Assembly (NCBI GenBank): GCA_030390025.1
Contig: CM059432.1
Coordinates: forward strand, 34,846,001-34,910,000
Direction of reading: 5' to 3'
Source: Squalus acanthias
Lineage: Eukaryota
DNA length: 64,000 nt
Shown: in pieces, positions 6,271 to 64,000 of the stretch
How the letters are laid out: every line of letters starts with the position of its first letter
How positions within the stretch are numbered: position 1 is the stretch's first letter
Position numbers and translations under genes: made by a program
The notes under the pieces: generated by a model
Seen by the model: the letters and a program-made list of their open reading frames with translations, nothing else
Database searches by the model: none
What the model was told of the DNA's origin: nothing

Positions 6271-7294
6271 AGGTGCTTCTGCAACAAAGCAAACTTTATT
6301 GGCCCTTAGACTGCACCTAATATTAGCGCCCCTGTTGAGCACTAAGCCAATCAGCAGCGTGTTTAACGCTGAGATCAGCACTGCAGTCATGTAGATGAGC
6401 AGGCAGCAAGAATTTTGCGTGCTGCCTGCACCACTTAGAACGGGCGCAGGCAAATAGTGCTGCGTGATGCCCCCGCCTGTTTTCAGGCCTTATCCAATTT
6501 CTAGGCCTACAACTTTCCCCACAATTTTCTTGTCTAAGCTAGCCTCTGCCTTTACTTCAGTCTTATTCCCATTTATAACTGGTCCATTTGATTTCATTCA
6601 TCTACTCCAGATCCCTCTTGCTAATTTGTTTTCTGCATGAATATTATCCTCATCTATTTCTCCCTTCTCTATTCTGATCCTTGTTGGTTTAACTTTCCCA
6701 CCACCCCTACTTCTTAGTTTAAATACCTTGTCACTTCCCTATTTAACCGTTTTCCCAGTACATTAGCATCTTCCCTGTAGCACATCCCTGCAGAATAGCT
6801 CCCATTTGTCTCAGAACAATTGCCAATGCCCAACAAAGTGGAATCCTCTTTCTGTAGTGTTGACTGGTGTTGAGCAGAACAGCTCCCCCAGCTCTTCTTC
6901 AAATAGTGCCTTGCGATCTTTTATACCTACCAAAATAGGCAGTGAGGGTCTTGGTTTATTGGTGTATGGTAAGGACAGCACCTCTGACAGTCCCTCACCA
7001 CTGTACTGAAGTCTCAGCCTAAGTGAGGTGTCTTAAGTTCTGGAGTGGGACTATGAACTTATGACCTTCTGACTCACAGGCTACAGAGCTACCACTGAGC
7101 CAGCCTGGCACTCAGGCCAATCAGTAGGCTGTTGGACTAATTGAAGCTGGAGATGAAAAAAGACACGAATCAGATTCTCACTCTGAAGTATAAATACAGC
7201 CTGATTGACATGGTAACAGGTTAAAACAAAATCAGCATCTGGAGCTTGAATTCAAGGATTAACCTCAGGCTCTGGGTCATTGATTAGTGGAATA

Positions 7295-19120: not shown

Positions 19121-20516
19121 CTGCTTTACCTGTATCCTTTCATATCATTTCTCTGCACATGAATTGAGGCACTGGTTAAATGAATATATCTAACTTTATG
19201 ATAACGTTGCAGCTGCAAGATTAATGTTGTGATAAACAATACAATTCCCGACAAGCTTAAATCTTGTTATTCCAAGTGGAACATGTCCTATCTGAAAGCT
19301 TTAATGAGACTTCAGTTCTGATCCACCTTATCAGTTTAATTTGAATCTGTGTGTCGATAAGCGAAGGAGATGTAAAAAATCTTATCTTGAGCACCGAACC
19401 AAAGCACAATTACCCACGCCAGCTGTTGTCCACTATTAAACATTTATCTCTCCTTATTCTGGCTAAAAAGAAAAATAAATGCTGTAGCCTAGAAATTTAT
19501 TGATGCCATGACTGTTTTATAGATGTTAAATGGGCGCCTAAATGTCCAAGATGGTGGGAGGACACACATTCTGTGTCGGAATTTTGCCGCCAGCCATATT
19601 GACAAGAGCTGAAGTACAGGCGTCCAGGACCCGCGTCTGAAACAGGCATTAGGCCCTTTGCATATGCTAATAAGGGGGCCTAAAGCCTGTTTCAGGACCC
19701 ATTTCCAAAATTGGGCTTCCCTGAACGCAGCCGGCACGGGGTTGGCTGCGATTAGGATAACCAGGTCTAAATGCGGCCTAACTTTAAAAAAAACGCTGGA
19801 GACTGTCACCAAAATGTTTGTTTTTAAAATGCTTACCTGAATTTGAAGCAGTAGGGCCAAAGTCCATTGTCGGCCCATCCTGGCCCGCCAAGTCCTTCCT
19901 GAGGGCCACTGGCGGCGGTGCAGCAGTACCAAATTTAAATCCGCTTCGCTGGAGAGCTGCCTGGGGACTCATAATAAGTGTCCGCAGCTCGCCAGTCTAT
20001 ATTAAATATCGGGTGCACCTTGGCCTATCCGTTCCGGCACAGAGATCATTCGCTGCACTCAGTTCACGCTGGCAGGCTGGTACTATCCGATTTCAGAGTA
20101 CCCTGGAACAATAGCTGGCCGACACTCACACATGTAGAGGGACTGGGTGGCTGAGGTACGGGATGGTGACTGGACTCCGTGGGACCGCACTCCAGCCAGC
20201 AAGAGTCAGCGCCTTCAGAAGAGATGGGGTGAAAACTGAAAGGAGTGAAAGCCCATTGGGCTGGGGTGAAGACCAGCCTGCAGTACTGCCCAGAGTCAAT
20301 GGGTGGCAGGAACGGAGCATTTTATAAAACTCGCTGGATATTTTCAAACAGGTTCTTCCCCAAGGTGATTGAATCATGTCTTTCTTCCACTTTGAAGCTT
20401 TGCTGCTTTTGCTCCCAGTTATTTTTTTTACTTCTTTTGGTGATTCACATATGACTTATTACAACTTATTACCAGCCTCCCCCTCGCCATGACTGTGAAC
20501 AAGAAAATTGGTTATC

Positions 20517-22696
20517 TCCTTTTATCCTCCCCTCACTCTCCCCCTTTTACCCTCCCTCACTCTCCCCCTTTTACCCTCTCCTCACTCTCTCCCCTTTTAT
20601 CCTCCCCTCACTCTCTCCCCTTTTATCCTCTCCTCACTCTCTCCCCTTTTATCCTCCCCTCACTCTCCCCCTTTTATCCTCTCCTCACTCTCCCCCTTTT
20701 ACCCTCCCCTCACTCTCTCCCCCTTTTATCCTCCCCTCACTCTCTCCCCCTTTTACTCTCCCCTCACTCTCCCCCTTTTACCCTCCCCTCACTCTCTCCC
20801 CCTTTTACTCTCCCCTCACTCTCCCCCTTTTATCCTCTCCTCACTCTCTCCCCCTTTTACTCTCCCCTCACTCTCCCCCTTTTACCCTCCCCTCACTCTC
20901 TCCCCCTTTTATCCTCCCCTCACTCTCTCCCCCTTTTATCCTCCCCTCACTCTCCCCCTTTTATCCTCCCCTCACTCTCTCCCCCTTTTATCCTCCCCTC
21001 ACTCTCCCCCTTTTATCCTCCCCTCACTCTCCCCCCTTTTATCCTCCCCTCACTCTCCCCCTTTTATCCTCCCCTCACTCTCCCCCTTTTACCCTCCCCT
21101 CACTCTCTCCCCCTTTTATCCTCCCCTCACTCTCCCCCTTTTATCCTCCCCTCACTCTCTCCCCCTTTTACCCTCCCCTCACTCTCTCCCCCTTTTACCC
21201 TCTTCTCACTCTCTCCCCCTTTTATCCTCCCCTCACTCTCCCCCTTTTATCCTCCCCTCACTCTCCCCCTTTTACCCTCCCATCACTCTCTCCCCCTTTT
21301 ATCCTCCCCTCACTCTCCCCCTTTTATCCTCCCCTCACTCTCCCCCTTTTACCCTCCCCTCACTCTCTCCCCCTTTTATCCTCCCCTCACTCTCCCCCTT
21401 TTACCCTCCCCTCACTCTCCCCCTTTTATCCTCCCCTCACTCTCTCCCTTTTACCCTCCCCTCACTCTCTCCCTTTTATCCTCCCCTCACTCTCCCCCTT
21501 TTACCCTCCCCTCACTCTCTCCCTTTTACACTCCCCTCACTCTCTCCCTTTTACCCTCCCCTCACTCTCTCCCTTTTACCCTCCCCTCACTCTCTCCCTT
21601 TTACACTCCCCTCACTCTCTCCCTTTTACCCTCCCCTCACTCTCTCCCTTTTACCCTCCCCTCACTCTCTCCCTTTTACCCTCCCCTCACTCTCTCCCCC
21701 TTTTACCCTCTTCTCACTCTCTCCCCCTTTTATCCTCCCCTCACTCTCCCCCTTTTATCCTCCCCTCACTCTTCCCCTTTTACCCTCCCCTCACTCTCTC
21801 CCCCTTTTATCCTCCCCTCACTCTCTCCCCCTTTTATCCTCCCCTCACTCTCCCCCTTTTACCCTCCCCTCACTCTCCCCCTTTTATCCTCCCCTCACTC
21901 TCCCCCTTTTATCCTCCCCTCACTCTCCCCCTTTTATCCTCCCCTCACTCTCCCCCTTTTACCCTCCCCTCACTCTCCCCCTTTTATCCTCCCCTCACTC
22001 TCTCCCCCTTTTTTCCTCCCCTCACTCTCCCCCTTTTACCCTCCCCTCACTCTCTCCCCCTTTTACCCTCCCCTCACTCTCCCCCTTTTATCCTCCCCTC
22101 ACTCTCTCCCTTTTACCCTCCCCTCACTCTCCCCCTTTTACCCTCCCCTCACTCTCTCCCTTTTACACTCCCCTCACTCTCTCCCTTTTACCCTCCCCTC
22201 ACTCTCTCCCTTTTACCCTCCCCTCACTCTCTCCCTTTTACCCTCCCCTCACTCTCTCCCTTTTACACTCCCCTCACTCTCTCCCTTTTATCCTCCCCTC
22301 ACTCTCTCCCTTTTACCCTCCCCTCACTCTCTCCCTTTTACCCTCCCCTCACTCTCCCCCTTTTACCCTCCCCTCACTCTCCCCCTTTTACCCTCCCCTC
22401 ACTCTCTCCCTTTTACCCTCCCCTCACTCTCTCCCTTTTACCTCCCCTCACTCTCTCCCTTTTATCCTCCCCTCAGTCTCTCCCTTTTACCCTCCCCTCA
22501 CTCTCCCCCTTTTACCCTCCCCTCACTCTCCCCTTTTATCCTCCTCTCACTCTCTCCCTTTTACCCTCCCCTCACTCTCCCCCTTTTACCCTCCCCTCAC
22601 TCTCCCCCTTTTATCCTCCCCTCAGTCTCTCCCTTTTACCCTCCCCTCACTCTCTCCCTTTTACACTCCCCTCACTCTCCTCCTTTTACTCTCCCT
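20517..22696. repeat. Polypyrimidine/polypurine minisatellite, 25-27-bp unit TTTTA(C/T)CCTCCCCTCACTCT(CT)CCCCC, roughly 80-85 copies
   Basis: Directly visible; the top strand has almost no G. Confidence 0.97.
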
Positions 22697-24479
22697 GCAG
22701 TGTCCCCTTGAGAACATATTCCAGGCTGACACTCCATTGCACGAGGATATGGTGCACTGTTGGAGGTGGCATCTTCAGCTTAAACTGAGGTAGTGTCTAC
22801 TTGTTTGGGGCGGGGGAGGGGTCTTGAAGAAGATTAGGGAGCTCTTCTAGTGCCCTGGCCAACATTCCTCCCTCAACCAACACCACCAAAACCAAATCCT
22901 GGCACTCCCTACCTAACAGCATTGTGGGTGTACCTTCACCACTTGGACTGCAGCGGTTCAAGAAGACTGCCCATCACCACCTTCTCAAGGGCAACTAAGG
23001 ATGGCCAATAAATGCCAGCCTTGCTAGTGAGGCCCACAATCCGAAGAATGATAAATAAACAAAGATAAAATCTCAATAAATTGAAAATTTAATAGTGCGA
23101 TAAATAGAGCAGGAAGGATCTGAACCCAAATAGAAATGAATTGTTCCACCTGGCTGAAATCACCATAACGATCACATGCTCATTTCTTAAGTGCTCAGGT
23201 TCAGATTGTCATCCAGCAGGGACCAGCTAAAAGCATCTTTTAATATTATTCCGTGTTGTCTGACTGGCAGTTCTAGCACAACTTCTTTTATTCAGGTTTA
23301 TGCTTTATAAATTCAAACATTTAATATCTATGATTCAGTTTTTCAAGTTTTTTATTATGTATCTTACTGCATCCAATCTTTGAAGAACTGCCAAAATATT
23401 TAACTCCTTGGGTCATTATCCACAACTGTTCCTTGTATTTTTCAAGAAAGACAGAGCTGCATACTGATAGCAGAGGAACCGAGAGGAAAGAAAGACAAAC
23501 AGAAAGCGAGTAAACGGAAACAAAGACAAGAGAAAACATAAATAGAGAGCGCGGTAAAGGGAGGGAGACAGAAAAGAGAGGGAATAAAGAACAGAGAGAA
23601 AGAGCAAGTGAGAAAGACAGGCAAAAAGGGAGAAAAACAGAGAAAGAAAGAGAGGGAGAGACAAAAAAAGCAAGTGTGTGCCAGATTTCCTATTTGTGTT
23701 CCCAGTAGCGTAGATTCATACATATTGTTCCAAGGCAGTGGCTTGTGGGTGGAAGACCCTTCAGCGACACTAGAAACACGTATCAAGAATTGTGGTACAG
23801 AGGTCACGATAGAAAGGTCTGTATGTTATGCCTGAATAAACACTGAAGTTGGTGTGGTACTGTAATGGCTGCTTTTATTTCAAACTCTCTGGAACATTCC
23901 CTTTATATATAACAAACATTAGTGTAACACAAGTGATAGAGAATCGGCTGTCCGTTTTACATCTCTCCCAATTTTTACTTGCATTGACTTTCCGATTTAC
24001 TATCACCTGTTTAATACTATTGCACAAAGTCAAGATCTACCCCAATATAAGAGGAGACCAGAGCATGGAATACCTACAGTATGCTTGCTCCCATTAGGGA
24101 GCCCTCTAGTGTTCTATTAGCATTATGCAAGTACAATGCATACCTCTGACCTCCCAGCCAGAATATGTGCTACCACTGAGTGAATCTCCATTCTGGGAGC
24201 TCAAGTGCGTAAAACCTATGCAAAAGCTACACTAACCCTCCTAGCGCAGTTTGTATTATCGGAGGTGAAGGCCAAAAGTGTGTGAGCAAGGTAAGTGTTT
24301 ACATAATTTCAAGCCCCAAGTGAGACTTTGCAAGGCCCACAGTGTGTGCTTTCCACCCGCCCCCGCTCCCCCAGCCCTACCAGACTCTGTTACAAAATGC
24401 AGCACCAGTTCGATCGCTGTGCATAGGCCTGTAGGCCCAATTTTTTGCTCTCAAATCTCAGCGAGGCTCCACTCCCACA

Positions 24480-27342: not shown

Positions 27343-27457
27343 TCCACTACAATTCCTCCAAAAAAACCGGACCCTGTGACATCGGAAACTGTGGTTTTCT
27401 GGGGACTGCGACTATGGCAGGTGATCGGGGTCTTCTCCATATTCATCTTGTCCGTGA
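27343..27457 (+). CDS. TMIE: TMIE (transmembrane inner ear expressed protein) internal coding exon, equivalent to human exon 2
   Basis: Translates STTIPPKKPDPVTSETVVFWGLRLWQVIGVFSIFILSV+1 nt, matching recalled vertebrate TMIE (human ...[26 protein letters not shown]). Polypyrimidine tract and AG at 27329-27342 (phase 0); GTAAGT donor at 27458 (phase 1), the same phases I recall for human exon 2. Confidence 0.93.
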
Positions 27458-28989
27458 GTAAGTCATTGCAACCAATTAGTACTTGTTCTTATGGGTACTT
27501 CCAAATATGGCTCAGGCGCTAGTTGTGGCCTGCCTTTCTTTTAGCTACGGGACTTAGTAAATTTCCTGCCTATTATGCCTCCAGGCCTGTTGGGATATTA
27601 ACTGAGGTGGGAGTCAGTGCTGTTACCTCTGCATTTCTTGCTCTCCATAAAAGAAAGTGAGGGACTGCTTTTGGAAGGCAGTTTTTGTAGCGAGTGAAAA
27701 GGTCTATTAAAATCGTGACTATTGAATAAGTCTATTGCCCCTATAGATTTTCCCTCTTCATGTGGGGAAGTGTTGACTTCTATGTGACAACTGCTCCATA
27801 GATTCATGATGTATGATTGAGCTCACTGAGGGGGTAATCACAGCCCTGGACTTGTGTCTCATCATTGGACAGTGTGCTGTGTTGACCATACTTGAAGTTA
27901 GTTGTTGAGTAAGACATTGATTCGGATTCTGGCTCTCAAATAACACTCTTCTAGAGATTGTGTTCCTGTTCCTGAACCTTCCAGTACTTTGATAGTTAAT
28001 TGCTTTAATGTTCCACTTGTCATCTTCAAAATTCAATGCATAGAAGATATACCTGGACTGGTACAGGTATAGCACTCCATCTTTGAAATGATAGCTAAAT
28101 TGGTGGTTTCTTATGTGATGCTTTGAAGAAGGTAAAGGATCAATGGAATTTATAATGCACTGATTAATTTGGTTGGAAACATGCTTGGCAATAGAAAATA
28201 GAAGATGGTAAATTTTTTAAATACTTATCTACGATGCAGCAATGAGTGACATTCAACAAGAATCTGTTACTGATCGCTGTGCAAACACTATTCATAGAAT
28301 TCTCATTTTTATATAGCAATTTATCACATCTCTCAGAAACATCTTGAAGAACTTCATGTACAAAGAATAACCTTAAAGTGCAGTGATTGGTCTTATATGG
28401 GGATTAGCTGATGAATTTTAAATGTGGATTAATGAATGATACTGCATTTTGAGAGCACAAAACTTGTACACAAAATAAGGATGCCATCAAAAAACGTTGT
28501 GATCACTGACCATTAAAATGACCAATGCGATAACTGAAAGTTAATATGAAGTGCTGTCAATATGCCGAATGAAATATGAGAATGCATCCCCAAGGCTTTG
28601 GGTTAAAAGGAAAAAAGAACATGCATTGATTTAGCATGTTAGACCGAGACCCTGTCTGCCCTTTCAGCTAGACATAAAAGAGCCCATGGTACTATTTTTG
28701 AAGAAAAGCAGGGGGACTTCTTCTGGTATCCTGGCTAACATCACTAAGAACATAAGAATTAGGAGCAGGTGTAGGCCATACGGTCTCTCAAGCCTGCTCT
28801 GCTGTTCAATAAGATCTTGGTTGATCTTAGACCTCAACTCCACTTTCCTGCCCAATCCCCATATCCCTTGATTCCCCTAGAGTCTAAAAATCTATTGAAT
28901 ATATTCAACTATTCAGCATCCACAGCCTTTTTGTGTAGAGAATTCCAACAATTCACAAACCTCTGAGTGAAGACATTCATAGAGTCATA

Positions 28990-29888
28990 GGGGGAAAAAT
29001 TCAGTTGGTTGTGCCTCCCGTTAGCACCTTAAGAGGGCGCTAATGGGGCGCAAAGCAACTAGCGCCTGGGCGCGGCGATGTTTGCGCCGCTCGCGTAATT
29101 AACTAGACATTTTGCGGTGGCACTAAACACTACCGCCACGATCTCCTGCGCCGACAGATCGTGACGTCAGTCGAGTGCGCAATGCCCCGGTAGCGCCCCG
29201 GAGCGGATATTGAGTGGCGCCCCCTGCCTTACCGCCTGCCGCTGGCAACGACAGGTTGAGGGGAGCGTTTTGCAGTCAGGAAGGGACTGAGGGAGCGCTA
29301 TTTAAAGGCGACCGCTACCTGCCTTTTTTTGTTGGTGACATTTTTGAACCACGCATTCTGAGAGAGAGAGAGAGAGAGAGAGACTTCTGGAGAGATTCAA
29401 TGCTGTGTGAAGGAGTTTTGGGTACTGAGCAGCACTTTGCAGGTTCATTTTGATTTGCCATTCCTTGTATCGATTTAGAAGAGACTGTGGGGGCTGCACT
29501 CTGAGCTCTTTCCCTGGTTCTCTCCATTGTTCTTTCCAGCAGATTTGATGTGCAGGTCTCTCCAGGCCGAGATTCAAGGTTGCAATGAGCAGGATGTGGA
29601 TGGAAAGCAAGATCAACCCTCCCCTTTAAGAACTGGCCCGCGCCATTGTGTCTGTGTTCCATTGCTGACTGACATCACATGAGCTTCGCCAGCGCTCTGA
29701 GGTAGCGCCTCGCTCCTTGGCCTTTGCGCCTTAAGACAGATGTGTAGCGCCTGATTTAGCGCTCCAATCACCTCCAGGGGCGATAAAAGTCAAGTTTGCA
29801 GTCGGAGGCGATAATTAGCGCCAGGCACTAATCTTTGCGCCCGGCCGATAATTGCGCCCCAAATGGGGCGATACTGAATTTCTCCCCC
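28990..29888 (-). mobile_element. ~900-bp Harbinger-type MITE, family A, copy 1
   Basis: TIRs GGGGGAAAAATTCAGT / ACTGAATTTCTCCCCC; ATA TSD; dense subterminal TAGCGCC motifs. Confidence 0.9.
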
Positions 29889-29899
29889 ATAGAGTCATC

Positions 29900-30491
29900 G
29901 GGGGAAAAATTGAGCCACGTCCCCTTTGGGGCGCTAACTTCGCCGGGGCGCTACATTTAACGCCCCGGCGGCCGAAATTCACCGGTAGCGCCCCAAGTGG
30001 GAAGCGGGATGCTACTGGAAGCGCCCCACCTCCCTCTTGGGATGCTGCAAGTGAATATCGCAGCGAGACGTACCGCAGTGCCACGGTACTGCAGGCCTTC
30101 CTCCCCTTCTTAAAGGGGAGGGGCCTAGCACAGCACGACCCGGGGCCCAGCTGGGCCACCAGGGATCGGAGTGCCGGAAAAAGAGCCCGGCACTCAAGAG
30201 AAGTGCCGGGCTCACGGAGCACAGCCGGCACTCTGCGGGGGGGCTGCAGAGGAGGCCGGGGACGGCAGAGGGAGCAGGTGCTGGCAGGCGGCCAGCAACA
30301 AAAATGACCGCCCGGCACCTCCCCTTTAATTTGTGCCGCCCCGGCCACAGGTAGGCCCCCCTCATCACGTCGGTAAGTCAGGGGGCGCTATCGAAGATTG
30401 TGGCCGGGGCGCGAGCGGGGCGCTGCGCATGGCGATGACGTCATCTCTTAGGGCACTAACGGAAGGCGCAAAGCAACCGAATTTTTAGGCC
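29900..30491 (+). mobile_element. ~590-bp GC-rich Harbinger-type MITE, family B
   Basis: Ends GGGGGAAAAATTG / CGAATTTTTAGGCC, flanked by ATC/ATA. A second copy lies at 59659-60238. Confidence 0.8.
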
Positions 30492-33086
30492 ATAGAGTCA
30501 TAACGGCACAGAAGGAGGCCATTCAGCCCATCGAGTCCGTGCCGGCTCTCTGTAGAGCGATCCAGTCAGTCCCATTCCCCCGCTCTATCCCCGTAGCCCT
30601 GCAAGTTTATTTCTCTCAGGTGCCTATCCAGTCTCCCCTTGAAAACATTGAATGTCTCCATTTTCACCACTTCCGCCGGCAGCGAGTTCCAGGTCCTCAC
30701 CACTCGCTATGTAAAAAAGGTTTTCCTCACGTCACCCCTGTATCTCTTGCCCAAAACCTTAAATCTGTGTCCCCTAGTCCTTGTACCATCAACTAGTGGG
30801 AACAGCCTTTCCCCGTCTAGCCTATCCAAACCGGTCATAATCTTGTACACCTATCAAATCATCCCGCAACCGCCTTTGCGCCAATGAAAACAAATCCAGC
30901 TTCTCCAACCTGTCCTTGTAGCTAAGATCCCCCATCCCCGGAACCATTCTGGTAAATCTCCTCTGCACCCTCTCAAGGGCCTTCACATCCTTTCTAAAGT
31001 GTGGTGACCAGAACTGGATGCAATACTCCAGTTGTGGCCTAACCAGCGCTTTATAAAGGTTCAGCATAACTTCTCTACTTTTGTACTCAATATCTCTATT
31101 TCTGAAGCCCAAGATCCCATATGCTTTGCTAACCACTCTCTCAATATGTCCTGCCACCTTCAGGGACCTATGCACATTAACTCCCAGGTCCCTCTGTCCC
31201 TGCACACTCTTTAAAACTGTGCCATTAAGTGTGTATTGCCTCTCCCTGTTCCTTCTGCCAAAATACATCACCTCACACTTCTCTGTATTAAATTCCATCT
31301 GCCACTTGTCTGCCCATTCTGCTAGCCTTTCTATGTCCTGTTGCAGTCGATTGGTATCATCCTCACTGTTTGGAACACCCCCAAGTTTGGTGTCATCGGC
31401 AAATTTAGAAATTCTACTCTGTATTCCAATATCCAGGTCATTTATATACATCAAAAAAAGCAGTGGCCCCAGCACTGACCCTTGGGGAACACCACTGTCT
31501 ACCATCCTCCAGTCTGAAAAACAGCCATTTACCACAACTCACTGTTTTCTATCCTTAAGCCAATTCCTTATCCAAGCTGCCACTGACCCACCTATTCCAT
31601 GAGCCTCAATTTTGTTAACCAGCCTTCTATGTGGTACTTTGTGAAACGCCTTCCTAAAATCCATGTAGACAACATCCATTGCATTCCCTTCATCAATCCT
31701 CCCTGTTACTTTGTCAAAAAATTCAATTAGATTAGTCAAACACAATCTGCCTTTTACAAATCTGTGTTGGCTCTCCTTAATTAACTTAAACCTCTCCAAA
31801 TGCCCCTTTAATTTTTTCCTTGATTATTGTTTCTAAAACTTTACCCACCACTGATGTTAAACTGACCGGCCTGTAGTTACTAGGATTGTTCTTACACCCT
31901 TTCTTGAACAATGGTGTCACATTTGCCACTTTCCAATCCTCAGGCACTTCCCCCTCATCTAGGGAAGATTGGAAAATTATGGCAAGCCCTTCTGCTATCT
32001 CCTCCCCCAATTCCCTTAGCAACCTGGGATGCAAGCCATCTGGACCAGGCGACTTATCCACTCGAAGCATACCCAGCCTTTCTAGTACATCCTGTCTATC
32101 AATTTTCACCCCTTCCATTGCTTCTACCTTTTCCACTTCTACCGATATTTTGTCAGCATCCACCTCCTTAGTAAACACCGATACAAAGTATTCATTGAGT
32201 ATTCTGGCCTTACCCTGCGCCTCTAAGCATATATCACCTTCTTTGTCCCGAATAGGCCCCACCCCGCCTCTTACTTTTTTGGGTTCCCTTTTGAGTTAAC
32301 CGCCATTCTACTCTCATATTCTCTCTTTGCCAATCTTATTTTCATCTTCACTTCCCCTCTCAATATTGTATTTGGTCTGGTTCTCCCTTGAAGAATTCAC
32401 CTGACATGCATCATACACCCTCTTTTTTTGTTTTTCCTGTCAGTCTTTGCTTCTATTTTACCCTGGCTAGATCCTTTCACATCCCATTGAAGTTAGCCCT
32501 ATTCCAGTTTAGAAGTTCCACTCTAGATTGTTCCTTGCTCCTCTCCATTGCTAATCTAAATCTTACGATACGATGATCACTCATACCCAAGTGTTCTCCC
32601 ACAAACACTTGGTCGACCTGGCCCTCCTCATTCCCCAGCACCAGATCCAGCAATGCCTCCTTCCTAGTTGGGCCAAGAACATACTGGTCAAGGAAATTCT
32701 CCTGAACACATTTCAGAAATTCCTCCCCCTCCTTTCCCTTTAACCTAGCATTATCCCAATCAATATTTGGGTAATTAAAGTCCCCCAATATCACCACTCT
32801 ATAGTTCTTGCATATCTCTGTGATTTCCCTGCAGATTTGCTCCTCTACCTCCGTCTCATTATTTGGAGGACTATAGAATACCCCCAATAGCGTGATCATA
32901 CCCTTTTTGCTCCTCAACTCTAACCAAATGGATTCTGTCCTTGTCCCCTCAAGAACATCCTCCCTTTCCAACACTACAATGTGTTCCTTAATCAGCACTG
33001 CCACCCCACCTCCCTTTTTCCCTTCCCTATCTTTTCTGTGAGAAGTCGCACAACACCAGGTTATAGTCCAACAGTTTTATTTGAAA

Positions 33087-33123
33087 TCACAAGCTTTCGG
33101 AGCGCTGCTCCTTCATCAGGTGA
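33087..33123 (-). ncRNA. Minimal type I hammerhead ribozyme motif (mirror copy)
   Basis: Minus strand reads TCAC-CTGATGA-A-GGAGC-AGC-GCTCC-GAAA-GC-TT-GTGA. Confidence 0.75.
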
Positions 33124-33427
33124 AGTGAAGAGATGTATATAGGCACAGCATATATAGTTAGAGAACACTGCCAGATGATTACAGTTAATCTTTCTAACTG
33201 CCCTTTATCACACCTCGGCAGAGAGATAATCACGGCAATCAAAGGTGTGGATGGTGTCCAAACAGGTCAGTCAGGACTGACTGACCTGTTTGGACACCAT
33301 CCACACCTTTGATTGCCGTGATTATCTCTCTGCCGAGGTGTGATAAAGGGCAGTTAGAAAGATTAACTGTAATCATCTGGCAGTGTTCTCTAAATTTATA
33401 TGCTGTGCCTATATACATCTCTTCATT

Positions 33428-33464
33428 TCACCTGACGAAGGAGCAGCGCTCCGAAAGCTTGTGA
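33428..33464 (+). ncRNA. Minimal type I hammerhead ribozyme motif
   Basis: TCAC-CTGACGA-A-GGAGC-AGC-GCTCC-GAAA-GC-T-T-GTGA: stem I TCAC/GTGA, intact core, stem II, palindromic AGCT helix III. Confidence 0.75.
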
Positions 33465-33482
33465 TTTCAAATAAAACTGTTG

Positions 33483-34380
33483 GGGGGAGAAATTCAGTAT
33501 CGCCCCATTTGGGGCGCAATTATCGGCCGGGCGCAAAGATTAGCGCCTGGCGCTAATTATCGCCATCGACTGCAAACTTGACTTTTATCGCCCCTGGAAG
33601 TGATTGGAGCGCTAAATCAGGCGCTTCACACCTGTCTTAAGGCGCAAAGGCCGAGGAGCGAGGCGCTACCTCAGAGCACTGGCGAAGCTCATGTAATGTC
33701 AGTCAGCAATGGAACACACACACAATGGCACGGGCCAGTTCTTAAAGGGGATGGTTAATCTTGCTTTCCATCCACATCCTGCTCATTGCAGCCGTGAATC
33801 TTGGCCTGGAGAGACCTGCACATCAAATCTGCTGGAAAGAACAATGGAGAGTACCAGGCAAAGAGCTCAGAGTGCAGCCCCCACAGTCTCTTCTAAATCG
33901 ATACAAGGAATGGCAAATCAAAATGAACCTGCAAAGTGCTGCTCAGTACCCAAAACTCCTTCACACAACGTTGAATCTCTCCAGAAGTCTCTCTCTCTCT
34001 CTCTCTCTCTCAGAATGCGTAGTTCAAAAATGGCACCAACAATAAAAGGCAGGAAGCGGTCACCTTTAAATAGCGCTCCCCCTTTCCCTTCATGACTGCA
34101 GAACGCTCCCCTCAACCTGTCGTTGCTAGCGTCAGGCGGTAAGGCAGGGGGCGCCACTCAATATCCACTCCGGGGCGATACCGGGGCGTTGCGCACTCGA
34201 CTGACGTCACGATCTGCCAGCGCAGGAGATCGTGGCGGTAGTGTTTAGTGCCGCCGCAAAATGTCTAGTTAATTTCGTGAGCGGCGCAAACTTCGCCGCG
34301 CCTGGCGCTAGATGCTTTGTGCCCCATTAGCGCCCTCTTAAGGTGCTAACGGGAGGCGCAACCAACTGAATTTTTCCCCC
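33483..34380 (+). mobile_element. MITE family A, copy 2, inserted in the right arm of the Penelope palindrome
   Basis: Same TIRs as copy 1; TTG TSD (33480-33482, 34381-34383). Confidence 0.92.
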
Positions 34381-35710
34381 TTGGACTATAACCTGGTGCT
34401 GTGCGACTTCTCACATTTGTCCACCCCAGTCCAACACCGGCATCTCCACATCATGGCTATCTTTTCTGAACACCTTGTACCCTTGAATATTAAGTGCCCA
34501 GTCCTCACCGCATTTAAGCCACGTTTCCGTTATTGCTACAACATCATATTTCCACACGACTAATTGTGCTTGTAGCTCACCAACCTTATTCACCACACTT
34601 TGTGCGTTTACGTACCTACATTCTAAACCCATTTTTGAATTTTTCGTAGTCTTTCTTAGTCTGCTCCTATCTAATATGATACTACTTCCGCCTCTAATAC
34701 TACTTTCTTCTCTAGTACTATCCAACACATTCACTCTTTTATGCACCTTATTCCTCTTTTCTACTCCTATATGCTGGTGCCCATCCCCCTGCCAAGCTAG
34801 TTTAAATCCTCCCCAACAGCACTAGCAAACCTCCCACGAGAATATTGGTCCCGGCTCTGTTGAGGTATAACCTGTCCGGCTTGTACAGGTCCCACCTTCC
34901 CCAGAAACGGTCCCAATGCCTCAGGAATCTAAAGCCCTCCCTCTGCACCATCTCTCCAGCCACGCATTCATCTGTTCTATCCTCCTATTCCTCTACTCAC
35001 TAGCACGTGGCACCGGGAGTAATCCGGCGATTACAACATTTGAGGTCTTGCTTTTTAATCTCTTTCCTAGCTCCCTATAGACTGCCTGCAGGACCTCATC
35101 CCTCTTTCTCCCCATATCGTTGGTACCAATATGGACAATGACCTCTGGCTGTTCACCCTCCGCCCTCAGCGTGTCCTGCAGCTGCTCAGTGACATCCTTG
35201 ACCCTAGCACCAGGGAGGCAACATACCATCCTGGAGTCACGTCTGGGTCCACAGAAAAGCCTATCTGTTCTCCTAACTAATGAATCCCCTATCACTATTG
35301 CTCTTCCACTCTTCTTCCTCCCGCGCCCCCCCCCCCCCCTCCCCCGCCCCGCTGTGCAGCTGAGCAACCCATGGTGCCATGGCCTTGGCTCTGGCTGCTC
35401 TCCTCTTCTCCGTCTTAAATGGCCAACCTTTTATCCTGAGACTATGCCCCCTAGTTCTAGACTCTCCAGCCAGGGGAAACAACCTCTCAGCATCTACGCT
35501 GCCAATCCCCCTCAGAATCTTGCGTGTTTCAATGAGATCACCTCTCATTCTTCTAAACTCCAGAGAGTATAGGCCCATTCTACACAATCTCTCATCATAG
35601 GACAACCCTCTCATTCCAGGAATCAATCTAGTGATGCTTTGTTACACCGCCTCCATGGCAAGTATATTCTTCCTCAGATAAGGAGACCAAAACTGTGCAC
35701 AGTACTCCAC

Positions 35711-40976: not shown

Positions 40977-42536
40977 TACAAGCCAAGTTTATGCAACCTG
41001 TCCTCATAATTTATCCCTTTAAGCCCTGTTTTCCAATTGCTGTCAGTTGCCAAAAACAAACAGGTTATAATAAGTCTCCAAAATACTCAGTCCAACATTT
41101 TAATTGTTCATCTCCTTCAAAAGAAATGGTTTTACACAAAGGAAGTATTATGGAATAAACATATCGATGTGAAAACCTACTGTTTTAATATGTGGTAGCT
41201 CTAATTTTAAGATTTTGCCCTGGATGGGGGTGAGAAACCTTGAATGAGATAGTTTCCTCTCTTCCAGAGAGTGACTGTACTAGGAAATTCTAACATGGCC
41301 CATCAGTCTCTTTCAGTTTTGTTTTGGCCAGAACCACACTGGTTCAGTGATTACATGGTTCAGTCTTTCCCTCTCTCTAGTCTCTCAGGCTTTACAGTTT
41401 TCATTAGCCTTTGAAATGCGTGAACTCCAGGGTGTAAAATAGTGAAGAACGAGGCCAAAGATCCACAGCCCTTTCAGCATACAACTATGGGGCTTGCTCG
41501 GCCACTTCAAATGACAGTTAAGAGTCAACCACACTGGTGTGGGACTGCATTCACATATAGGCCTGATCGGGTAAGGACGGCAGGTCTCCTTCCCTAAAGG
41601 ACATGAGTGAACCAGTTGGGTTTTAACAATAATTAAACAGCTTCATGATCACTTTTACTGATACCAGCTTTGAATTTCCAGATTTTTAAAAAACTGAATT
41701 CAAATTCTCAAACTGCCATGGTGGGAGTTGAACTCACATTCTCTGGATCACTAGTCCAGTAATATAACCGCTACACTACATTACCATGCTTCCCTGATTG
41801 TCCTGGCATCTCTGCTGCTGAAACCCTTAACTAAGTCTTCATTACCTCGAGGACATGCAATGCTCTGCTCACTGACCTTCACCATACCTGTTGAACACTC
41901 TCCAAACCCCAGCCCTTCCTCTCCACTATGCTGCCTCTGGTTTGGTTTGCACTCCCTACATTTCACCATCAGAGGCTGCTCTTCAGTCACCATCACCCGC
42001 CTCTCTGGAATTCTCTGCTGGAGTCACTTTGCCTCACCACCTCTATCTCCCTTCCGAAGCTTCCTGAAGATGTAGCTCTCTTTCTCAGATGCCTCCTCTC
42101 CAACCTCTCTCCCTGTTGGAGCTGGGTGACGTCCTCTTTACCTGTAAACAGGACATGAGGACCAGGTTGCTGTTGTGAGATACACAAAGCAGCACTGCTG
42201 CTGCTGCCTCCAGGTGCATCTAGGGGACAGCAGCACCCCAGCGACCACATCAACACTGCCGCCGGAGGCAGAGTCACCATCTTAACTGGGCTAATCGGCT
42301 CGGAAAGGTCAAGGATGCCGGGGCCGATATTAACCCAGCCCATGCAAATCCCAACCACTTCCGATATTAACCTGCAGGATTTTGCAGGCGGATGAGGCGG
42401 CAGGTGTGGGGGGAGCCTCAGAACTTTATCCTAGTACGTCAGTCAGACTCCGATGCATGCTTTAACTGAGGGGTGAGCGGTGAAGCAGGTCTGCAGCTGG
42501 TCTGAAGATAGAAGAGGTCCTTCTGATGAGTCTTAT

Positions 42537-43381: not shown

Positions 43382-43885
43382 TATATCTTTCCCTTGTTGG
43401 GCCAGGAGGATTTCTCCTACGGGCCTCACAAGAAAGTTATGGCCTCCCCTGCCCCGGAATCGCCCCAAACCTCTGTAAGACTTTCCCCAACCCCCTCCCT
43501 GCCTACCTAGAAGTGAGCAGGTGGCCAAGGGCCTCCTGATCCTCACCTGCTAGCAGCCACCCTGGCCCCTCTATACACCAGTTTAAGGGAGGAAGTGGAC
43601 TGGCGGTATTTAAATGGATCCTGGCAGTTAAATTAACCATGGCCTCCTGCTCCCTCTGCCGAGTGGGAAACTAACTCACCGGAGCAGTTTCCCACCGGAA
43701 ACCCACTCCAAATTAAATCCACCCCACATTCTCTCACTGGCCCGTATGAATTTTCCCCAGTCAGAAACAAACTCATGGGTAGTCAGTTTAAGACACCGTC
43801 CATGCGCAGTCCTTTTCCCAGTGCTCTGATGTAATCAAACCTGCCGCACGATATAAATGGGATGGTTTCCATGGCGCTAGGACTC

Positions 43886-46352
43886 CATCAACGTAGCCCC
43901 AAAACAACGGCGGCAACTGAAGCAATGCCGCAGGAAAATCAACGCTGGAGCTCTCAAAGACCCTGCTAAGAAAGCCCTGTTCAGCCTGCGCCTCACAACC
44001 AACCTAACGACTCCCAGTGATGCAGAGACACAGAGTGTCCACAGCGCCTGGTCTGCACTCAAGGCCTCCATAATCAGCACCTGTGAAGAGACACTCGGTC
44101 ACTCGACCACGAAACACCAAGACTGGTTCGACGAGAACGACCAGGAGATCCAGGAGCTAATAAGTCGCAAGCGCAAGGCATTCCTGATCTGGAAACAGCA
44201 ACAGAACTCGAGAGCAAGAAAGCAGCTCTACAGACGCCTGAAGGCCGAGGTCCAACAAAAAACTCGTGACCTAAAGAACAGATGGTGGGTGGAGAAAGCG
44301 TAGGAGATCCAGCAGCTAGCCGACAACCACAACATGCATGGATTCTTTAGCGCAGTCAAGATCACCTACAGCCCAAGCACCCAAGGTCCAACCCCACTGC
44401 GGGCCAAGAACGGAGAGATACTCATCAAGGACAGAGAGGCAGTCAGTGCCCGCTGGAAGGAGCACTTCGAAGATCTCCTTAACGGAGACTCATTCTTCGA
44501 CGCGAGTGTCCTCAACTCCATCCCGCAGCATGCTACTCGCCACCACCTCGCATAACCCCAGCCCGGCATAAGGTTGAAAAGGCCATCCGACAACTGAAGA
44601 ACAACAAGGCCTCAGGAGCAGATGGAATCCCCGCCGAGGCACTTAAACATGGCGGAGAAGCACTATTGGCGCGAATACATGAACTAATTTCTCTTATTTG
44701 GAAGGAGGAGAGCATGACAGGGGATCTCAGAGACGCCATAATCATGACCATCTTCAAAAAAGGTGACAAGTCCGATTGCGGTAATTACAGAGGAGTCTCC
44801 CTGATGTCTGCCACAGGGAAAGTCATCGCAAGAATCCTCCTCAATCGCTTTCTCCCAGTGGCTGAAGAGCTCCTCCCAGAGTCGCAATGCGGATTCCGCC
44901 CACTAAGGGGCACAATGGACATGATCGTCACCGCGCGTCAACTACAAGAGAAATGCAGGGAACAGCACCAACCATTGTACATGGCCTTCTTTGATCTCAC
45001 AAAGGCCTTCGACACTGTCAACCGTGAGGGATTATGGAGTGTCCTCCTCAAATTCAGCTGCCCTCAAAAGTTTGTCACCATCCTCCGCCTGCTTCACGAT
45101 GACATGCAAGCCGTGATCCTGACCAACGGATCCACCACAGACCCAATTCACGTATGGACCGGGGTCAAGCAAGGCTGTGTCATCGCACCAACGCTCTTCT
45201 CGATCTTCCTGGCTGCAATGCTCCATCTCACCCTCAGTAAGCTCCCCACTGGAGTGGAGCTAATTTACAGAACAAACGGGAAACTGTTCAACCTCCGTCG
45301 CCTCCAGTCCAGATCCAAGGTCGTCCCATCCTCTGTCATCGAATTACAGTACACAGACGACGCTTGCGTCTGCGCTCACTCGGAGGTCGAACTCCAAACC
45401 ATTGTCAACACCTGCACCGAAGCGTATGAGAGAATGTGCCTTACACTAAACATCCGTAAGACAAAGTCCTCTACCAACCTGCCCCCGCCACGCAGGACTG
45501 CTCCCCGATTATCAAAATCCATGACGAGGCCTTGGACAACGTGGACCACTTTCCATACCTCGGGAGCCTACTGTCAACAAGGGCAGACGTCGACGACGAA
45601 GTCCAACACCGCCTTCAGTGTGCCAGTGCAGCCTTCGGTCGCCTGAGGAAGAGAGTGTTTGAAGACCAGGACCTCAAACGCAGCACCAAGCTTATGGTCT
45701 ACAGAGCAGTAGTGATGCCCGCCCTCCTGTATGCTTCAGAGACATGGACCATGTACAGCAGGCACCTCAAAGCACTGGAGAGGTACCACCAACGCTGCCT
45801 CCGCAAGATCCTGCAAATCCATTGGCAGGATAGGCGCACCAATGTCAGTGTTCTCGCTCAGGCCAACATCCCCAGCATCGAAGCTTTGACCACGCTCGAT
45901 CAGCTCCGATGGACGGGCCACATCGTCTGCATGCCTGATACGAGACTCCCAAAACAAGCGCTCTACTCGGAGCACCGACACGGCAAGAGAGCCCCAGGTG
46001 GGCAGAGGAAACGCTTCAAGGACACCCTCAAAGCCTCCTTGAAAAAGTGTAACATCCCCACCGACACCTGGGAATCCCTGGCCCAAGACCGCACAAAGTG
46101 GAGGAGAAGCATCCGGGAAGGCGCCGAACACCTTGAGTCTCTTCGCCGGGAGCAAGCGGAAGCCAAGCACAAACAGTGGAAGGAGCGCACGTCAACCCAA
46201 GCACCCCACCCACCCGCCCCTTCAACCACCGTCTGCCCCACCTGTGACAGAGACTGTCGGTCCCGCATTGGACTCATCAGTCACCTGAGAACTCATTTTT
46301 AATGTGGAAGCAAGTCATCCTCGGTTCTGAGGGACTGCCTAAGAAGAAGAAG
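43886..46352 (+). mobile_element. 5'-truncated RTE-clade LINE (RT plus C-terminal C2H2-like motif), disrupted
   Basis: NYRGVSL, FFDLTKAFD, GVKQGCVIAPTLF, LQYTDD, CPTCDRDCRSRIGLISHLRTH; (GAA)n tail; 7-bp TSD AGGACTC (43879-43885, 46353-46359). Confidence 0.95.
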
Positions 46353-53215: not shown

Positions 53216-54082
53216 GGGGGAGAAATTCGGTATCGCCCCATTTGGGGCGCAATTATCGGCCGGGCGCAAAGTTTAGCGCCTGGTGCTAATTATCGCCTCC
53301 GACTGCAAACTTGGCTTCTATCACCCCTGGAGGTGATTGGAGCGCTAAATCAGGCGCTACACACCTCTCTTAAGGCGCTAACGCCGAGGAGCGAGGCGCT
53401 ACCTCAGAGCGCTGGTGAAACTCATGTGATGTCAGTTAGCAATGGAACAGACACACTGGCGCGGGCCAGTTCTTAAAGGGGAGGGTCGATCTTGCTCTCC
53501 ATCCACATCCTGCTCATTGCAGCCTTGAATCTCGGCCTGGAGAGACCTGTACATCAATTCTGCTGGAATGAACAATGGAGAGGCCCAGGGAAAGAGCTCA
53601 GAGTGCAGCCCCAAAGTCTCTTCTAAATCGATGCAAGAAAGGTCAAATCAAAATGAACCTGCAAAGTGTTGCTCAGTACCCAAAACTCCTTCACACAGCA
53701 TTGAATCTCCCCAGAAGTCTCTCTCTCTCACTCAGAATGCGTGGTGCAAAAATGTCGCCGACAAAAAAAGGCAGGAAGCGGTCGCCTTTAAATAGCGCTC
53801 CCCCAGTCCCTTCCCAACTGCAAAACGTTCCCCTCAACCTGTCGTTGCTAGCGGCAGGCGGAAAGGCAGGGGGCGCCACTCAATATCTGGTCCGGTGCGC
53901 TACCGGGGCGTTGCACGCTCGACTGATGTCACGATCTGCGGGCGCAGGAGATCGTGACGGTAGTGTTTAGCGCCGCTGCAAAATGTCTGGTCAATTTCAC
54001 GAGCGGCACAAACATCGCCGCGCCCCATTAGCGCCCTCTTAGGGCGCTACCGGGAGGCGCAAAGCAACTGAATTTTTCCCCC
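53216..54082 (+). mobile_element. MITE family A, copy 3
   Basis: TIRs GGGGGAGAAATTC / GAATTTTTCCCCC; ATA TSD. Confidence 0.92.
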
Positions 54083-59095: not shown

Positions 59096-59658
59096 GTGGA
59101 GGGAGTATTCCTAACCTCCAAAGAGCCACCTCTGCTGAATCAATGTGACATTTCCTTCTTTCACATCAGCAATCTTTGGGCAGCCTTTTATTTATCATTT
59201 ATATCGCACATTCCAGTCTCAAGATATCCCAAAGTGCTTCACTGCCAATGAATTAACTCTTTTTGAAAGCGTAGTCACTGATGTTATATTGGCTAAATTG
59301 GCAGCTAATTTGAGGTCCTGCAAACATTAAATGAGATGAATTACCACTTAATCTGTTTTTAGTGGTGTTGGTTGAGGGGTGAACATTGACCTGGATACCT
59401 GGAGAATTCTCTGCTCCTCGTCAAATAGTGCCATAGGATCTTTTGCGTTCACCTGAACAGGCAGATAAGGCTTTGATTTTATGTCTCTTCAAAGGCACAC
59501 CTCTGATATCAAATAATTCCCTCACTACTGCACTGTGTGCTCAAACTTCAGAGCGGATCTGAGCCCACAACTTTGTAACACAGTTGGGACAGTGTAGCCA
59601 CCGAACCAAGAGATGCTTTAGTGTCAATTGTCTGATCATGGAAATTTTAAGCATCATG

Positions 59659-60238
59659 GGGGGAAAATTGAGTCGCACCTCATTTGGGGCGCTAACTTCG
59701 CTGGGGCGCTAAAAGTAGCCCGAAAAAATTAACGCCCCCACGGATGATTTTCCCAGGTAGCGCCCTGAGAGGGAGGAGGGGCGCTACTGGAAGCGCCCCG
59801 CATCCCTCTTGGGGCGCTGCGAGGCAATATCGCGGCACTACGTGGCGCTGCGGCACGTCACGCCGCGGTACTGCAGGCCTTCCTCCCCTTCTTAAAGGGG
59901 AGGGGCCTGGCGCAGTGCATCCCGGCGCCCAACTGGGCCACCAGGGATCGAGAGTGCCGGCAAACGAGTCCAGCACTCAAGAGGAGTGCCAGGCTCACGG
60001 AAAGCAGCTGGCACCCCGCGGGGGGGGCTTCACGGGGGCTGGGGACAGCAACGGGGCAGGTGCTGGCAGGCAGCCAGCAACAAAAATGGCCGCCCGCCAC
60101 CTCCCCTTTAACTAGCGCCGCCCCGGCCGCAGGTAGGCCCCCCTGACCCCGTTGGACATAGCGTTCGGCGGTAAGTCAGGGGGCGCTACCAAAGATCGCG
60201 GCCGGGGCGCGAGCGGGGCGCTGCGCACGGCGATGATG
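59659..60238 (+). mobile_element. MITE family B, copy 2 (right end missing)
   Basis: Collinear with 29900-30440. Confidence 0.8.
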
Positions 60239-61952: not shown

Positions 61953-63143
61953 GGCCGTGATTTTGCCGGCGCTCAGAGAGCGGGTTCGGAGGCGGGTCTG
62001 TTGTCAAAATTGCAATGATTGATGGCGGGTTGGGAACCCGCTGCGAACCCGCCTCCATGTAAGTATCCAAAGCGTCAGGCCTGCGATTTCAGAACAGACC
62101 CGACACCAAGCGGCGGGGGAGGCATTTAGGATACTTAACTGCTTATTAACTGCTTGTTAAATACTATTTTGCCAGCATTTTCCTATTTTCCCACATTTTC
62201 AACGGCATTCACGTCGTTCAGAGATCACATCAGGTAAGTATGTCGGGTGTTCAATCGAGCTGAATAGTTCCCAGCTGCAACTGCAGTATAAAATCTAACC
62301 TTTCACATCTGTTCAGTTTGCAATGTCAGAAGTTGCTGATTTCAGGATTGGGAAGACACATTTGATCTGTATCGAGGCTGTAAGTGTGTGTTGTAAACTC
62401 TATATGCACTGACACCTCCTTGGAATAACTTCTCTCCCCATTGACTGATTGCTTCTACCATCTCATCCTCAACTGCCATATATAACAGCAGAATGGCAAC
62501 AATTTATACTCTCTCATCCTGGTCCTCAGAATCAGAAGATGATCACCGCAGCAGAACCAGGCACAGCAGCAGCACCAACAACAAGAGCGCCGACTTTCTC
62601 CTCAGCCACCTGATGCTGCACAGGGCAGAGGCTGTCAGTGCAGGGCTGCACCGCGCCGCAGGAGATACCCCCAACACAGGGTTTACAGGCCGAGGATGAG
62701 CTTCCTCAACATGAGTGAGCAGCAGTGCCAAAGGAGGCTGAGACTTTCGCGAGAGGTAGTCGCTGACATTTGCACAATGCTGCAACAACACCTGCAGCCC
62801 AGAGAAGCGGGTGGACACTCCTTACCAGTGGCTGTCAAAGTCACCACCGCACTCAACTTCTTTGCGTCCGGCTCGTTCCAGGGATCAGCAACAGACATAA
62901 GTGGTATCTCCCAGTCGGCCGCCCACAGATGCATCACGCAGGTCACCGATGACCTCTTTGATACGCCCACCAATTACATCCACTTTTCCACTGATGAAGC
63001 CAGTGTTACCAAGCGGGCGCTTGGCTTTGTCAATCTGGCTGGCTTCCCACAGGTGTAGGATGTCATCGACTGCACCCATGTGGCCATCAGGGCACCCCAC
63101 CAGGACCCAGCAGCATTTGTAAACCGCAAGGTCTTCCACTCCC
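61953..63143 (+). mobile_element. Left part of a Harbinger transposon with a decayed transposase (62493-63143), interrupted by an RTE
   Basis: TIR-like GGCCGTGATTTT. Promoter region is collinear with 2630-3365. Encodes [21 protein letters not shown]...[17 protein letters not shown]...[15 protein letters not shown]...[10 protein letters not shown]. Confidence 0.88.
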
Positions 63144-64000
63144 TTCTTTCTCTTTCTTAGGCAGTCCCTCGGAACCGAGGATGACTTGCTTCCACATTAA
63201 AAATGAGTTTGCAGGTGACTGATGAGTCCAATGCGGGACCTACAGTCTCTGTCACAGGTGGGACAGACAGTGGTTGAAGGGGCGGGTGGGTGGGGTGCTT
63301 GGGTTTACGTGCGCTCCTTGCGCTGCCTGCGCTTGGCTTCCGCTTGCTCCCGGCGAAGAGACTCAAGGTGTTCGGCGCCTTCCCAGATGCTTCTCCTCCA
63401 CTATGTGCGGTCTTGGGCCAGGGATTCCCAGGTGTCGGTGGGGATGTTACACTTTTTCAAGGAGGCTTTGAGGGTGTCCTTGAAGCATTTCCTCTGCCCA
63501 CCTGGGGCTCTCTTGTCGTGCCGGAGCTCCGAGTAGAGCGCTTGTTTTGGGAGTCTCGTATCAGGCATGCGGACAATGTGACCCGTCCATCGGAGCTAAT
63601 CGAGCGTGGTCAAAGCTTCAATGCTGGGGATGTTGGCCTGAGCGAGAACACTGACGTTGGTGCACCTATCCTGCCAATGGATTTGCAGGATCTTGTGGAG
63701 GCAGCGTTGGTGGTACCTCTCCAGTGCTTTGAGGTGCCTGCTGTACATGGTCCATGTCTCTGAGGCATGCAGCAGGGCAGGTATCACTGTTGCTCTGTAG
63801 ACCATGAGCTTAGTGCCGGGTTTGAGGTCCTGGTCTTCAAACACTCTCTTCCTCAGGTGACCGATGGCTGCACTGGCACACTGAAGGCGGTGTTGGACTT
63901 CGTCATCGACGTCTGCCCTTGTTGACAGTAGGCTCCCGAAGTACGGAAAGTGGTCCACGTTGTACAAGGCCTTGTCATGGACTTTGATAATCGGGGGGCA
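63144..64000 (-). mobile_element. RTE LINE 3' part, same family as 43886-46352, running off the window
   Basis: Reverse complement is collinear with 45500-46350; NVDHFPYFGSLLS...SETWTMYSRH. Confidence 0.95.

Follow-up and report, generated by a model that had tools for sequence, protein, structure and literature searches.

What produced a near-perfect palindrome that carries a hammerhead ribozyme in each arm, and does it serve a purpose where it lies? The question is raised by positions 33027-34468 of a 64,000-nt stretch of Squalus acanthias DNA (assembly GCA_030390025.1, contig CM059432.1, 34,846,001-34,910,000 of the forward strand), which is referred to here as the window and to which all coordinates refer. 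The original prediction, made from the letters of the sequence, took the palindrome for a non-coding derivative of a Penelope-like element (PLE), with a plus-strand hammerhead in the pre-mRNA of TMIE. The origin in a PLE was supported by an anatomy that matches published PLE insertions, with an inverted pseudo-long terminal repeat (pLTR) plus tail and minimal hammerheads. We find it highly probable, however, that the palindrome is a one-off, dead-on-arrival insertion, 5′-truncated and 5′-inverted, of a high-copy PLE, made in trans by an endonuclease-bearing element and retaining only the last part of that element's 3′ untranslated region (UTR)/pLTR. What the analysis itself shows is the anatomy of the insert, its target-site duplication (TSD), the high-copy family, the variable centres of its members, the longer parent, and the predicted masking of the ribozymes.

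A repeat search recovered an arm pair at 33068-33274 and 33277-33483 (207 nt each, 98% complementary, 2-nt gap) and a second inverted pair at 33037-33071 and 34381-34415 (35 nt, 97%). When the two head-to-head arms were compared base by base, leaving out an intervening element with terminal inverted repeats (TIRs), they were found to mismatch at 5 of 238 positions (33394, 33396, 33426, 33436, and 34399 in right-arm coordinates). Arm length is 236-238 bp, as 2 of the 238 positions overlap the left TSD and 236 bp are left without them. Because the 898-bp TIR element, which went unmentioned in the original prediction, interrupts the right arm, the predicted palindrome of ~475 bp describes the state before the TIR insertion, and the continuous stem today is ~207 bp. 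Folding of 33027-33500 gave a z-score of −46 and a predicted stem of ~205 bp at −399 kcal/mol. The 3′ tail was found to be single-copy and one-sided as proposed, with a length of 41 nt, or 43 nt from 34414 if the 2 nt that match the TSD are assigned to the target, in place of the predicted 42 nt. The insert is 517 bp once the later TIR element is subtracted, and its parts are arranged as follows.

33027..33038, no strand: left TSD, identical at 12 of 12 positions to 34457-34468; the empty-site joint 33026->34457 has 12 shared letters
33039..33276, minus strand: left arm, an inverted, tail-less, 5′-truncated copy of the PLE end that takes in the apparently templated 2-nt "spacer" at 33275-33276
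33277..33482, plus strand: right arm, first part, a direct 5′-truncated copy of the PLE end
33483..34380, no strand: 898-bp non-autonomous TIR element, PIF/Harbinger-like, with a 16-bp TIR and a 3-bp TSD (TTG at 33480-82 and 34381-83)
34384..34415, plus strand: right arm, second part, the final 2 nt of which also match the end of the left TSD
34416..34456, plus strand: single-copy 3′ tail; 15 contigs of run X15 (contigs only guessed to be RNA, which cannot show expression, RNA ends, or editing) have heterogeneous loose ends behind 34455
34457..34468, no strand: right TSD

Contigs of 4 of 23 public runs were aligned at 85% likeness to a 2.3-kb stretch of the locus; runs X19-X23, with small shares or none, were left aside. 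Matching contigs numbered 45,227, 63,769, 4,599, and 8,277 per run and covered all 30 bins of the stretch, so the PLE end, the host long interspersed nuclear element (LINE) described below, and the TIR element are all repeats. The output lists, ranked by support, the best 15 of 295 joints (12 arm-to-arm joints, 2 of the empty site, and 1 within the TIR element), together with 40 of 253 variant places. The empty-target joint was detected in all four runs (4, 8, 1, and 3 contigs), which identifies the TSD as a true duplication of target sequence, as had been predicted; these joints may stem from paralogous LINE copies and thus allow no reading of insertion polymorphism. A chance TSD was rejected. 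The target itself lies in an open reading frame (ORF), as the insert interrupts the minus-strand endonuclease ORF of a LINE that we take to be of CR1 type, and the LINE frame enters and leaves the TSD and can be read without a break through a single copy of it.

32480..33038, minus strand: endonuclease region of host LINE ORF2, on the 3′ side of the insertion (Pfam Exo_endo_phos_2, E 1e-13); its frame joins the 5′ side through the TSD
34457..34821, minus strand: host LINE ORF2, on the 5′ side of the insertion; its open frame runs into the TSD, and this piece alone is without a Pfam match

This target structure bears on whether the two arms arose by separate events or later rearrangement (a second insertion, repair, or conversion), or by fold-back during assembly, an explanation that we consider very unlikely. 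PLEs tend to insert in or beside earlier copies (PMC6765202), and the whole locus is spanned by no listed contig; yet both arms lie within a single TSD, which restores the LINE frame, and inverted junctions are common in the family. Fold-back of a read was ruled out because the arms differ at five places and only one of them carries the TIR element with its own TSD; an assembly fold-back was also rejected.

The arm-to-arm joints provided a view of the other family members. All 12 of those listed have different centres, none of which is the centre of this palindrome. Other family copies are also inverted, each with its own junction, and the palindrome therefore looks like an insertion by-product rather than a distinct non-coding derivative. 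Furthermore, contigs were found to match through 33276 and then to continue into further parent sequence (24 in run X1 and 2 in run X7), indicating that the parent is longer and that the 2-nt spacer, apparently templated, belongs to the tail-less arm. The arms also have in common a rare letter at 33159/33392, where the other letter accounts for >99.9% of depth in all four runs, and a second letter at 33136/33415, where the other accounts for 83-99%. Such family-atypical letters in both arms point to one template or to later conversion between the arms. Could a dedicated non-autonomous palindromic family, in which the arm-arm-tail unit spreads with a fixed centre, account for the same data? The nearly equal arm lengths (2-nt offset) and the rare letters in common would suit it, some junction contigs are deep (200-980) so that some centres recur, and non-autonomous PLE derivatives exist (bioRxiv 10.64898/2026.07.22.740005). 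Against it stand the 12 differing centres, a parent sequence that continues past the centre, and the 64-kb window, where no second copy of the arm-arm-tail unit was found; a 200-bp duplex RNA would, in addition, be expected to hide the protein-binding sequence. We judge a fixed-centre family very unlikely.

Which enzyme acted, in what order priming took place, and how the events followed one another are inferred, as are the intron location and the lack of cleavage that are taken up below. For an insertion of the kind preferred here, two-sided priming on one template is, on balance, the most likely route. A protein combining reverse transcriptase (RT) and GIY-YIG domains would make cuts in the two target strands at a distance of 12 nt, and the 3′ end of each would then prime reverse transcription on the one template, with an inner initiation site giving the tail-less arm and an outer site giving the arm with the tail. 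Both cDNAs would stop within 2 nt of each other and be joined head to head, and fill-in would make the TSD. This route would explain why only one side has a tail, why a TSD surrounds both arms, why these share rare letters, and why the tail-less arm is longer by 2 nt. A PLE protein of the anole is described as cutting and extending both target strands, with reverse transcription starting at two internal sites that bound the tail (PMC11167929). Fold-back of one cDNA, the kind of priming favoured in Arkhipova 2013, is a possible but rather doubtful alternative for the same insertion: here the tail-less arm is longer by 2 templated nt, which would not result from a single fold-back with priming at the tail end.

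Several points weigh against the one-off insertion or the way we derive it: (i) such junction palindromes are taken as self-priming in Arkhipova 2013 (PMC3846280); (ii) the tail of 41-43 nt is slightly above the 30-40 bp quoted for PLEs; (iii) this exact centre may recur, since the joints listed are the best 15 of 295 by support and an unchanged centre would yield no joint; (iv) the 2 central nt would match the parent by chance in 1 of 16 cases; (v) the shared rare letters could come from arm-to-arm conversion after insertion; and (vi) five scans of viral, metagenome, and GTDB collections found no RT/GIY-YIG ORF that ends in this sequence. Among these scans for an autonomous parent, the hammerhead pattern had 0 matches in viral and 0 in metagenome contigs. 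The arm-end pattern was found at 3 metagenome, 2 GTDB, and 0 viral loci, all five of which were rejected as chance matches over 19-23 nt only.

The ribozymes were examined by descriptor search and by folding. As the original prediction held, each arm has a complete hammerhead core, one on each strand: a minimal type I hammerhead with helix I starting at 33428 (+) or 33123 (−). The descriptor search gave these two matches in the 64-kb window and none in 200 block-shuffled windows. Helix I of each hammerhead has 4 bp and helix II has 5 bp; the other parts are CUGANGA, one extra A, GAAA, an AGCU palindrome, and H17 = U. The cut site predicted earlier, U33460, coincides with H17 of the right-arm copy.

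33087..33123, minus strand: left-arm minimal type I hammerhead, from descriptor and fold; predicted cut after U at 33091
33428..33464, plus strand: right-arm minimal type I hammerhead, with helix I at 33428-31/33461-64, core at 33432-38, and extra A at 33439
Remainder of the right-arm hammerhead, plus strand: helix II at 33440-44/33448-52, GAAA, palindromic AGCU at 33456-59, and H17 = U33460

An Rfam scan of the window at the gathering score returned no hammerhead match. In isolation the hammerhead stretches were found to fold no better than shuffles (four of four stretches, z −1.8 to +0.6), as expected because the motif is minimal and without a stable helix III. Helix III is a 4-nt palindrome only, and the folds show none beyond one pair; when two isolated copies were cofolded, the minimum-energy form was not the helix III dimer, a kind of dimer that two-dimensional folding shows poorly. 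A domesticated intronic hammerhead, the type to which amniote HH9 and HH10 belong, was rejected as a candidate, given the 4-nt helix III palindrome and the lack of a stable monomeric helix III. Within the family, the free position N7 varies (other letter in 53-92% of depth), and among the variant places listed both indels within the ribozyme fall in loop II.

Masking of the ribozyme by the hairpin, another element of the original prediction, was supported by the folding results. The plus-strand hammerhead was calculated to pair with its mirror arm at a mean probability of 0.97, its helix II being formed with essentially zero probability (computed for the plus strand only), and the duplex is predicted at −72 kcal/mol versus −10 kcal/mol for the hammerhead fold. 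The mirror of this hammerhead is transcribed 305 nt earlier, and the stem can zip over 151 bp by the time the ribozyme appears. By symmetry the minus hammerhead likewise lies in the second-made arm for antisense read-through. Because the masking arm is always transcribed first, there is no switch-like window in the pre-mRNA, and the idea of a conditionally self-cleaving intronic RNA was not supported. In read-through RNA both hammerheads would be locked in a ~200-bp duplex and should not cut. Only an RNA started at the pLTR initiator would expose a hammerhead, still without a same-strand partner in the window, as no second same-strand hammerhead was found by the descriptor within 64 kb. Minimal hammerheads are described as inactive in vitro as monomers and weak as dimers (PMC4209133), dimer cleavage being summarized in a review (PMC6765202), and 8 of 9 Xenopus dimers failed to cleave (bioRxiv 10.64898/2026.07.22.740005). 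The anole PLE hammerhead is reported to cleave only with the element protein, to be dispensable for insertion, and to have no RNA-seq reads ending at its cut site (PMC11167929). We regard the hammerheads of the present insert as pLTR passengers, which in the parent would probably aid processing of the element RNA as dimers or with protein.

A role of the palindrome in TMIE was also considered, starting from a TMIE-like exon.

27343..27453, plus strand: TMIE-like exon (Pfam PF16038, E 5e-4, 20.2 bits, below the 27-bit cut-off), with AG before and GT donors after it

That the plus hammerhead would lie in TMIE pre-mRNA is plausible, given this exon-like stretch with a score below the cut-off. The insertion probably lies in the intron that follows this exon, a location that can only be inferred because no next TMIE exon was found in 27460-64000. 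Downstream, 375 plus-strand stop-free stretches of at least 30 aa gave 0 matches to the TMIE motif, and the TMIE Pfam scan gave no match in 41 of 45 cysteine-filtered stretches. A PDB sequence search with the TMIE-like exon returned only photosystem PsbL at an uninformative E of 0.36-0.57. The exon is followed, in 27445-27470, by two GT donors that overlap at a spacing of 4 nt.

On this placement the palindrome could be a co-opted intronic regulator, either a source of double-stranded RNA (dsRNA), editing, or small RNAs, or a conditional self-cleaving switch for TMIE pre-mRNA; this is the least probable of the explanations weighed. The plus hammerhead is sense to the TMIE-like exon, both cores are intact, and the stem of ~205 bp is predicted to be very stable at the folding energy given above. 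Counter to this, the insertion is young (5 of 238 differences), is nested in a LINE, has itself been hit by the TIR element, and carries no sign of selection, while the early-made masking arm, the missing same-strand partner, and the published record of inactive monomers, weak or failing dimers, and protein dependence speak against a switch. A>G and T>C counts were also alike in the DNA runs (29/36, 28/35, and 30/34) and the RNA-like run (29/38), though contigs at 85% likeness cannot show editing of the locus. If the intron is transcribed, the hairpin is physically likely to be a dsRNA source, the effect of which would be incidental.

The pLTR ends were found to contain a predicted core promoter, which is intact in the left arm and altered in the right.

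33122..33156, minus strand: predicted pLTR core promoter, intact version, pointing outward, with a TATA-like box at 33150-33156 and an initiator at 33122-33128 (A+1 at 33126)
33395..33429, plus strand: predicted pLTR core promoter, right-arm version, with the TATA-like box altered at 33394 and 33396 and initiator A+1 at 33425

In the left arm, the TATA-like box is at the equivalent of 33395, and exactly 30 nt on, at the equivalent of 33425, lies A+1 of an initiator that matches in full; a motif scan found a background of 5 such TATA/initiator pairs per 128 kb in the window. Three of the five arm differences (33394, 33396, and 33426 versus 33157, 33155, and 33125) fall at the predicted TATA box and initiator, and the intact version faces outward, in antisense to TMIE. 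Rotifer pLTRs have been described with a TATA box together with TCACT (PMC3846280), and in Drosophila transcription begins within the upstream pLTR, at a promoter that has no TATA box (PMC2377424).

The family junctions cluster at this predicted start. Of the 12 arm-to-arm joints listed, 11 have one arm that starts within 33425-33432, and where letters between the arms are given they move several of these starts to 33425 or 33426. In this support-ranked list, breakpoints are shifted to 33427 by the letter that the right arm itself has at 33426. The other arm starts variably between 33426 and 33477. In each of the four runs, contig depth shows a steep drop on the upstream side of the hammerhead, which speaks to consistency only since depth is no copy number. 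The clustered arm starts suggest that most family copies derive from the 5′ leader of pLTR transcripts. We tentatively propose that the short inverted copies of the family record the PLE transcription start. In this model, a promoter with TATA at −30 and an initiator would start the RNA at 33425, 3 nt before the hammerhead; RT would initiate internally at the tail sites within the ~130-nt 5′ leader, from both target nicks, and run to the RNA 5′ end, so that the abundant ~200-bp palindromes would be complete leader copies made by abortive two-sided priming. The present copy, which reaches 150 nt further up, would then be of a rarer kind, copied from the 3′ pLTR in a longer RNA. If the model is true, junction statistics in one genome could separate dual priming from fold-back and could reveal whether hammerhead-cut RNA ever serves as template.

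Two further observations concern the ends of the copies. In the joint 33090->33427, the deepest arm joint listed for run X1 (938) and mid-rank in X2 (594), one arm starts at the equivalent of 33461, the first base after the predicted hammerhead cut. This joint could mark cleaved RNA as template, a hint drawn from 1 of 12 joints. At the other end, the tail finishes with an ATG in good context (A at −3, G at +4; 34450-34456), which may be the start of the parent ORF; in other PLEs the pLTR plus tail takes in the first codons (PMC3846280).

The remainder of the window is rich in other repeats. The ~898-bp TIR element has two further copies, at 28990-29888 and 53216-54082 (95% and 87% identical), each with an ATA duplication. 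Short TIRs with a 3-bp TSD were thus seen in all three copies, and a 3-bp TSD is the PIF/Harbinger rule. Two of the three copies sit in a short CATAGAGT-type repeat, and a family related to the TIR element is present at 29895-30438 and 59654-60236. Harbinger-like pieces at 1595-2206 (+), 5911-6489 (−), and 62543-63055 (+), with Pfam matches to DDE_Tnp_4 (E 6.5e-11) and Myb/SANT (E 7.9e-8), are possible candidate partners of the TIR element. The sole Rfam match in the window, a tRNA-like sequence at 41713-41785 (−) that scored 31.9 bits, just above the gathering score, is probably the head of a tRNA-derived short interspersed nuclear element (SINE). A low-complexity, pyrimidine-rich tandem repeat of ~2.3 kb occupies 20444-22790, with all three plus frames open and a strong skew. 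A long, little-broken LINE with an RT ORF, presumably RTE-like, lies at 43881-46351 (+), and a second copy, 94% identical, at 63148-64000 (−).

The repeat is abundant and its arrangement already published, and nothing suggests a host function, so this single copy is of little weight as a locus. Its value is that of a specimen: the TSD is clean, both arms go back to one template, the tail-less arm is ahead by 2 nt, and the junctions of the family gather at a predicted start site. The origin of PLE inverted pLTRs and tails is still treated as open (PMC8557442 and PMC11167929), and a genome-wide count of such data could become a test of two-sided priming. Through insertions of this kind, perfect hairpins also become spread over introns, where they may be drawn into pathways of editing or small RNAs.

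The architecture is already published (Arkhipova 2013; Cervera 2014; Craig 2021). PLE insertions with an inverted 5′-truncated copy plus a one-sided 30-40-bp tail were described by Craig et al. 2021 (PMC8557442), and inverted pLTRs with a tail and TSDs of 8-10 bp were described in rotifer examples by Arkhipova et al. 2013 (PMC3846280). Minimal hammerheads on opposite strands 100-700 bp apart in PLEs were reported by Cervera and De la Pena 2014 (PMC4209133), whose Fig. S4A has a 5′-truncated PLE in which the opposite strand bears a second hammerhead; no shark example was found in the searched parts and supplements of that paper. Our literature search found no paper on shark PLE palindromes or the start-site peak, most subscription papers, Repbase, and Dfam lying outside it. 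Four marks of endonuclease-bearing (EN+) PLEs, namely a hammerhead in the pLTR, an inverted 5′-truncated copy next to the 5′ end, a one-sided tail, and a TSD, were all found here. The locus resembles EN+ PLE insertions as described in PMC3846280 and PMC8557442 in its head-to-head inverted 5′-truncated copy, one-sided tail, TSD, pLTR with TATA-like box and TCACT initiator, and landing site in another retroelement. It is unlike them in that no ORF is left, the arms end within 2 nt of each other, the TSD is 12 bp, the tail is 41-43 nt, and one arm is split by a TIR element. The hammerheads resemble those of PMC4209133 in the 4-bp helix I, the extra nucleotide between core position 9 and helix II, G10.1-C11.1, the palindromic 15.2-16.2, and the dual opposite-strand motifs 100-700 bp apart; they have a 5-bp helix II, in contrast to the 7-8 bp of the Schistosoma families described there. 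PAc, the Poseidon element of Anolis carolinensis (Frangieh et al. 2024, PMC11167929), supplies the model for the mechanism and for a protein-assisted hammerhead. Its ORF starts at helix II, whereas here the sole candidate ATG is at the tail end. Finally, the locus shares with non-LTR retrozymes (Li, Clavereau, Pollet 2026, bioRxiv 10.64898/2026.07.22.740005) a non-coding, pLTR-derived sequence, a type I hammerhead, and a chondrichthyan host. Classification as such a retrozyme was rejected, as those elements consist of head-to-tail units with same-strand hammerheads, whereas the arms described here lie head to head with one hammerhead on each strand.

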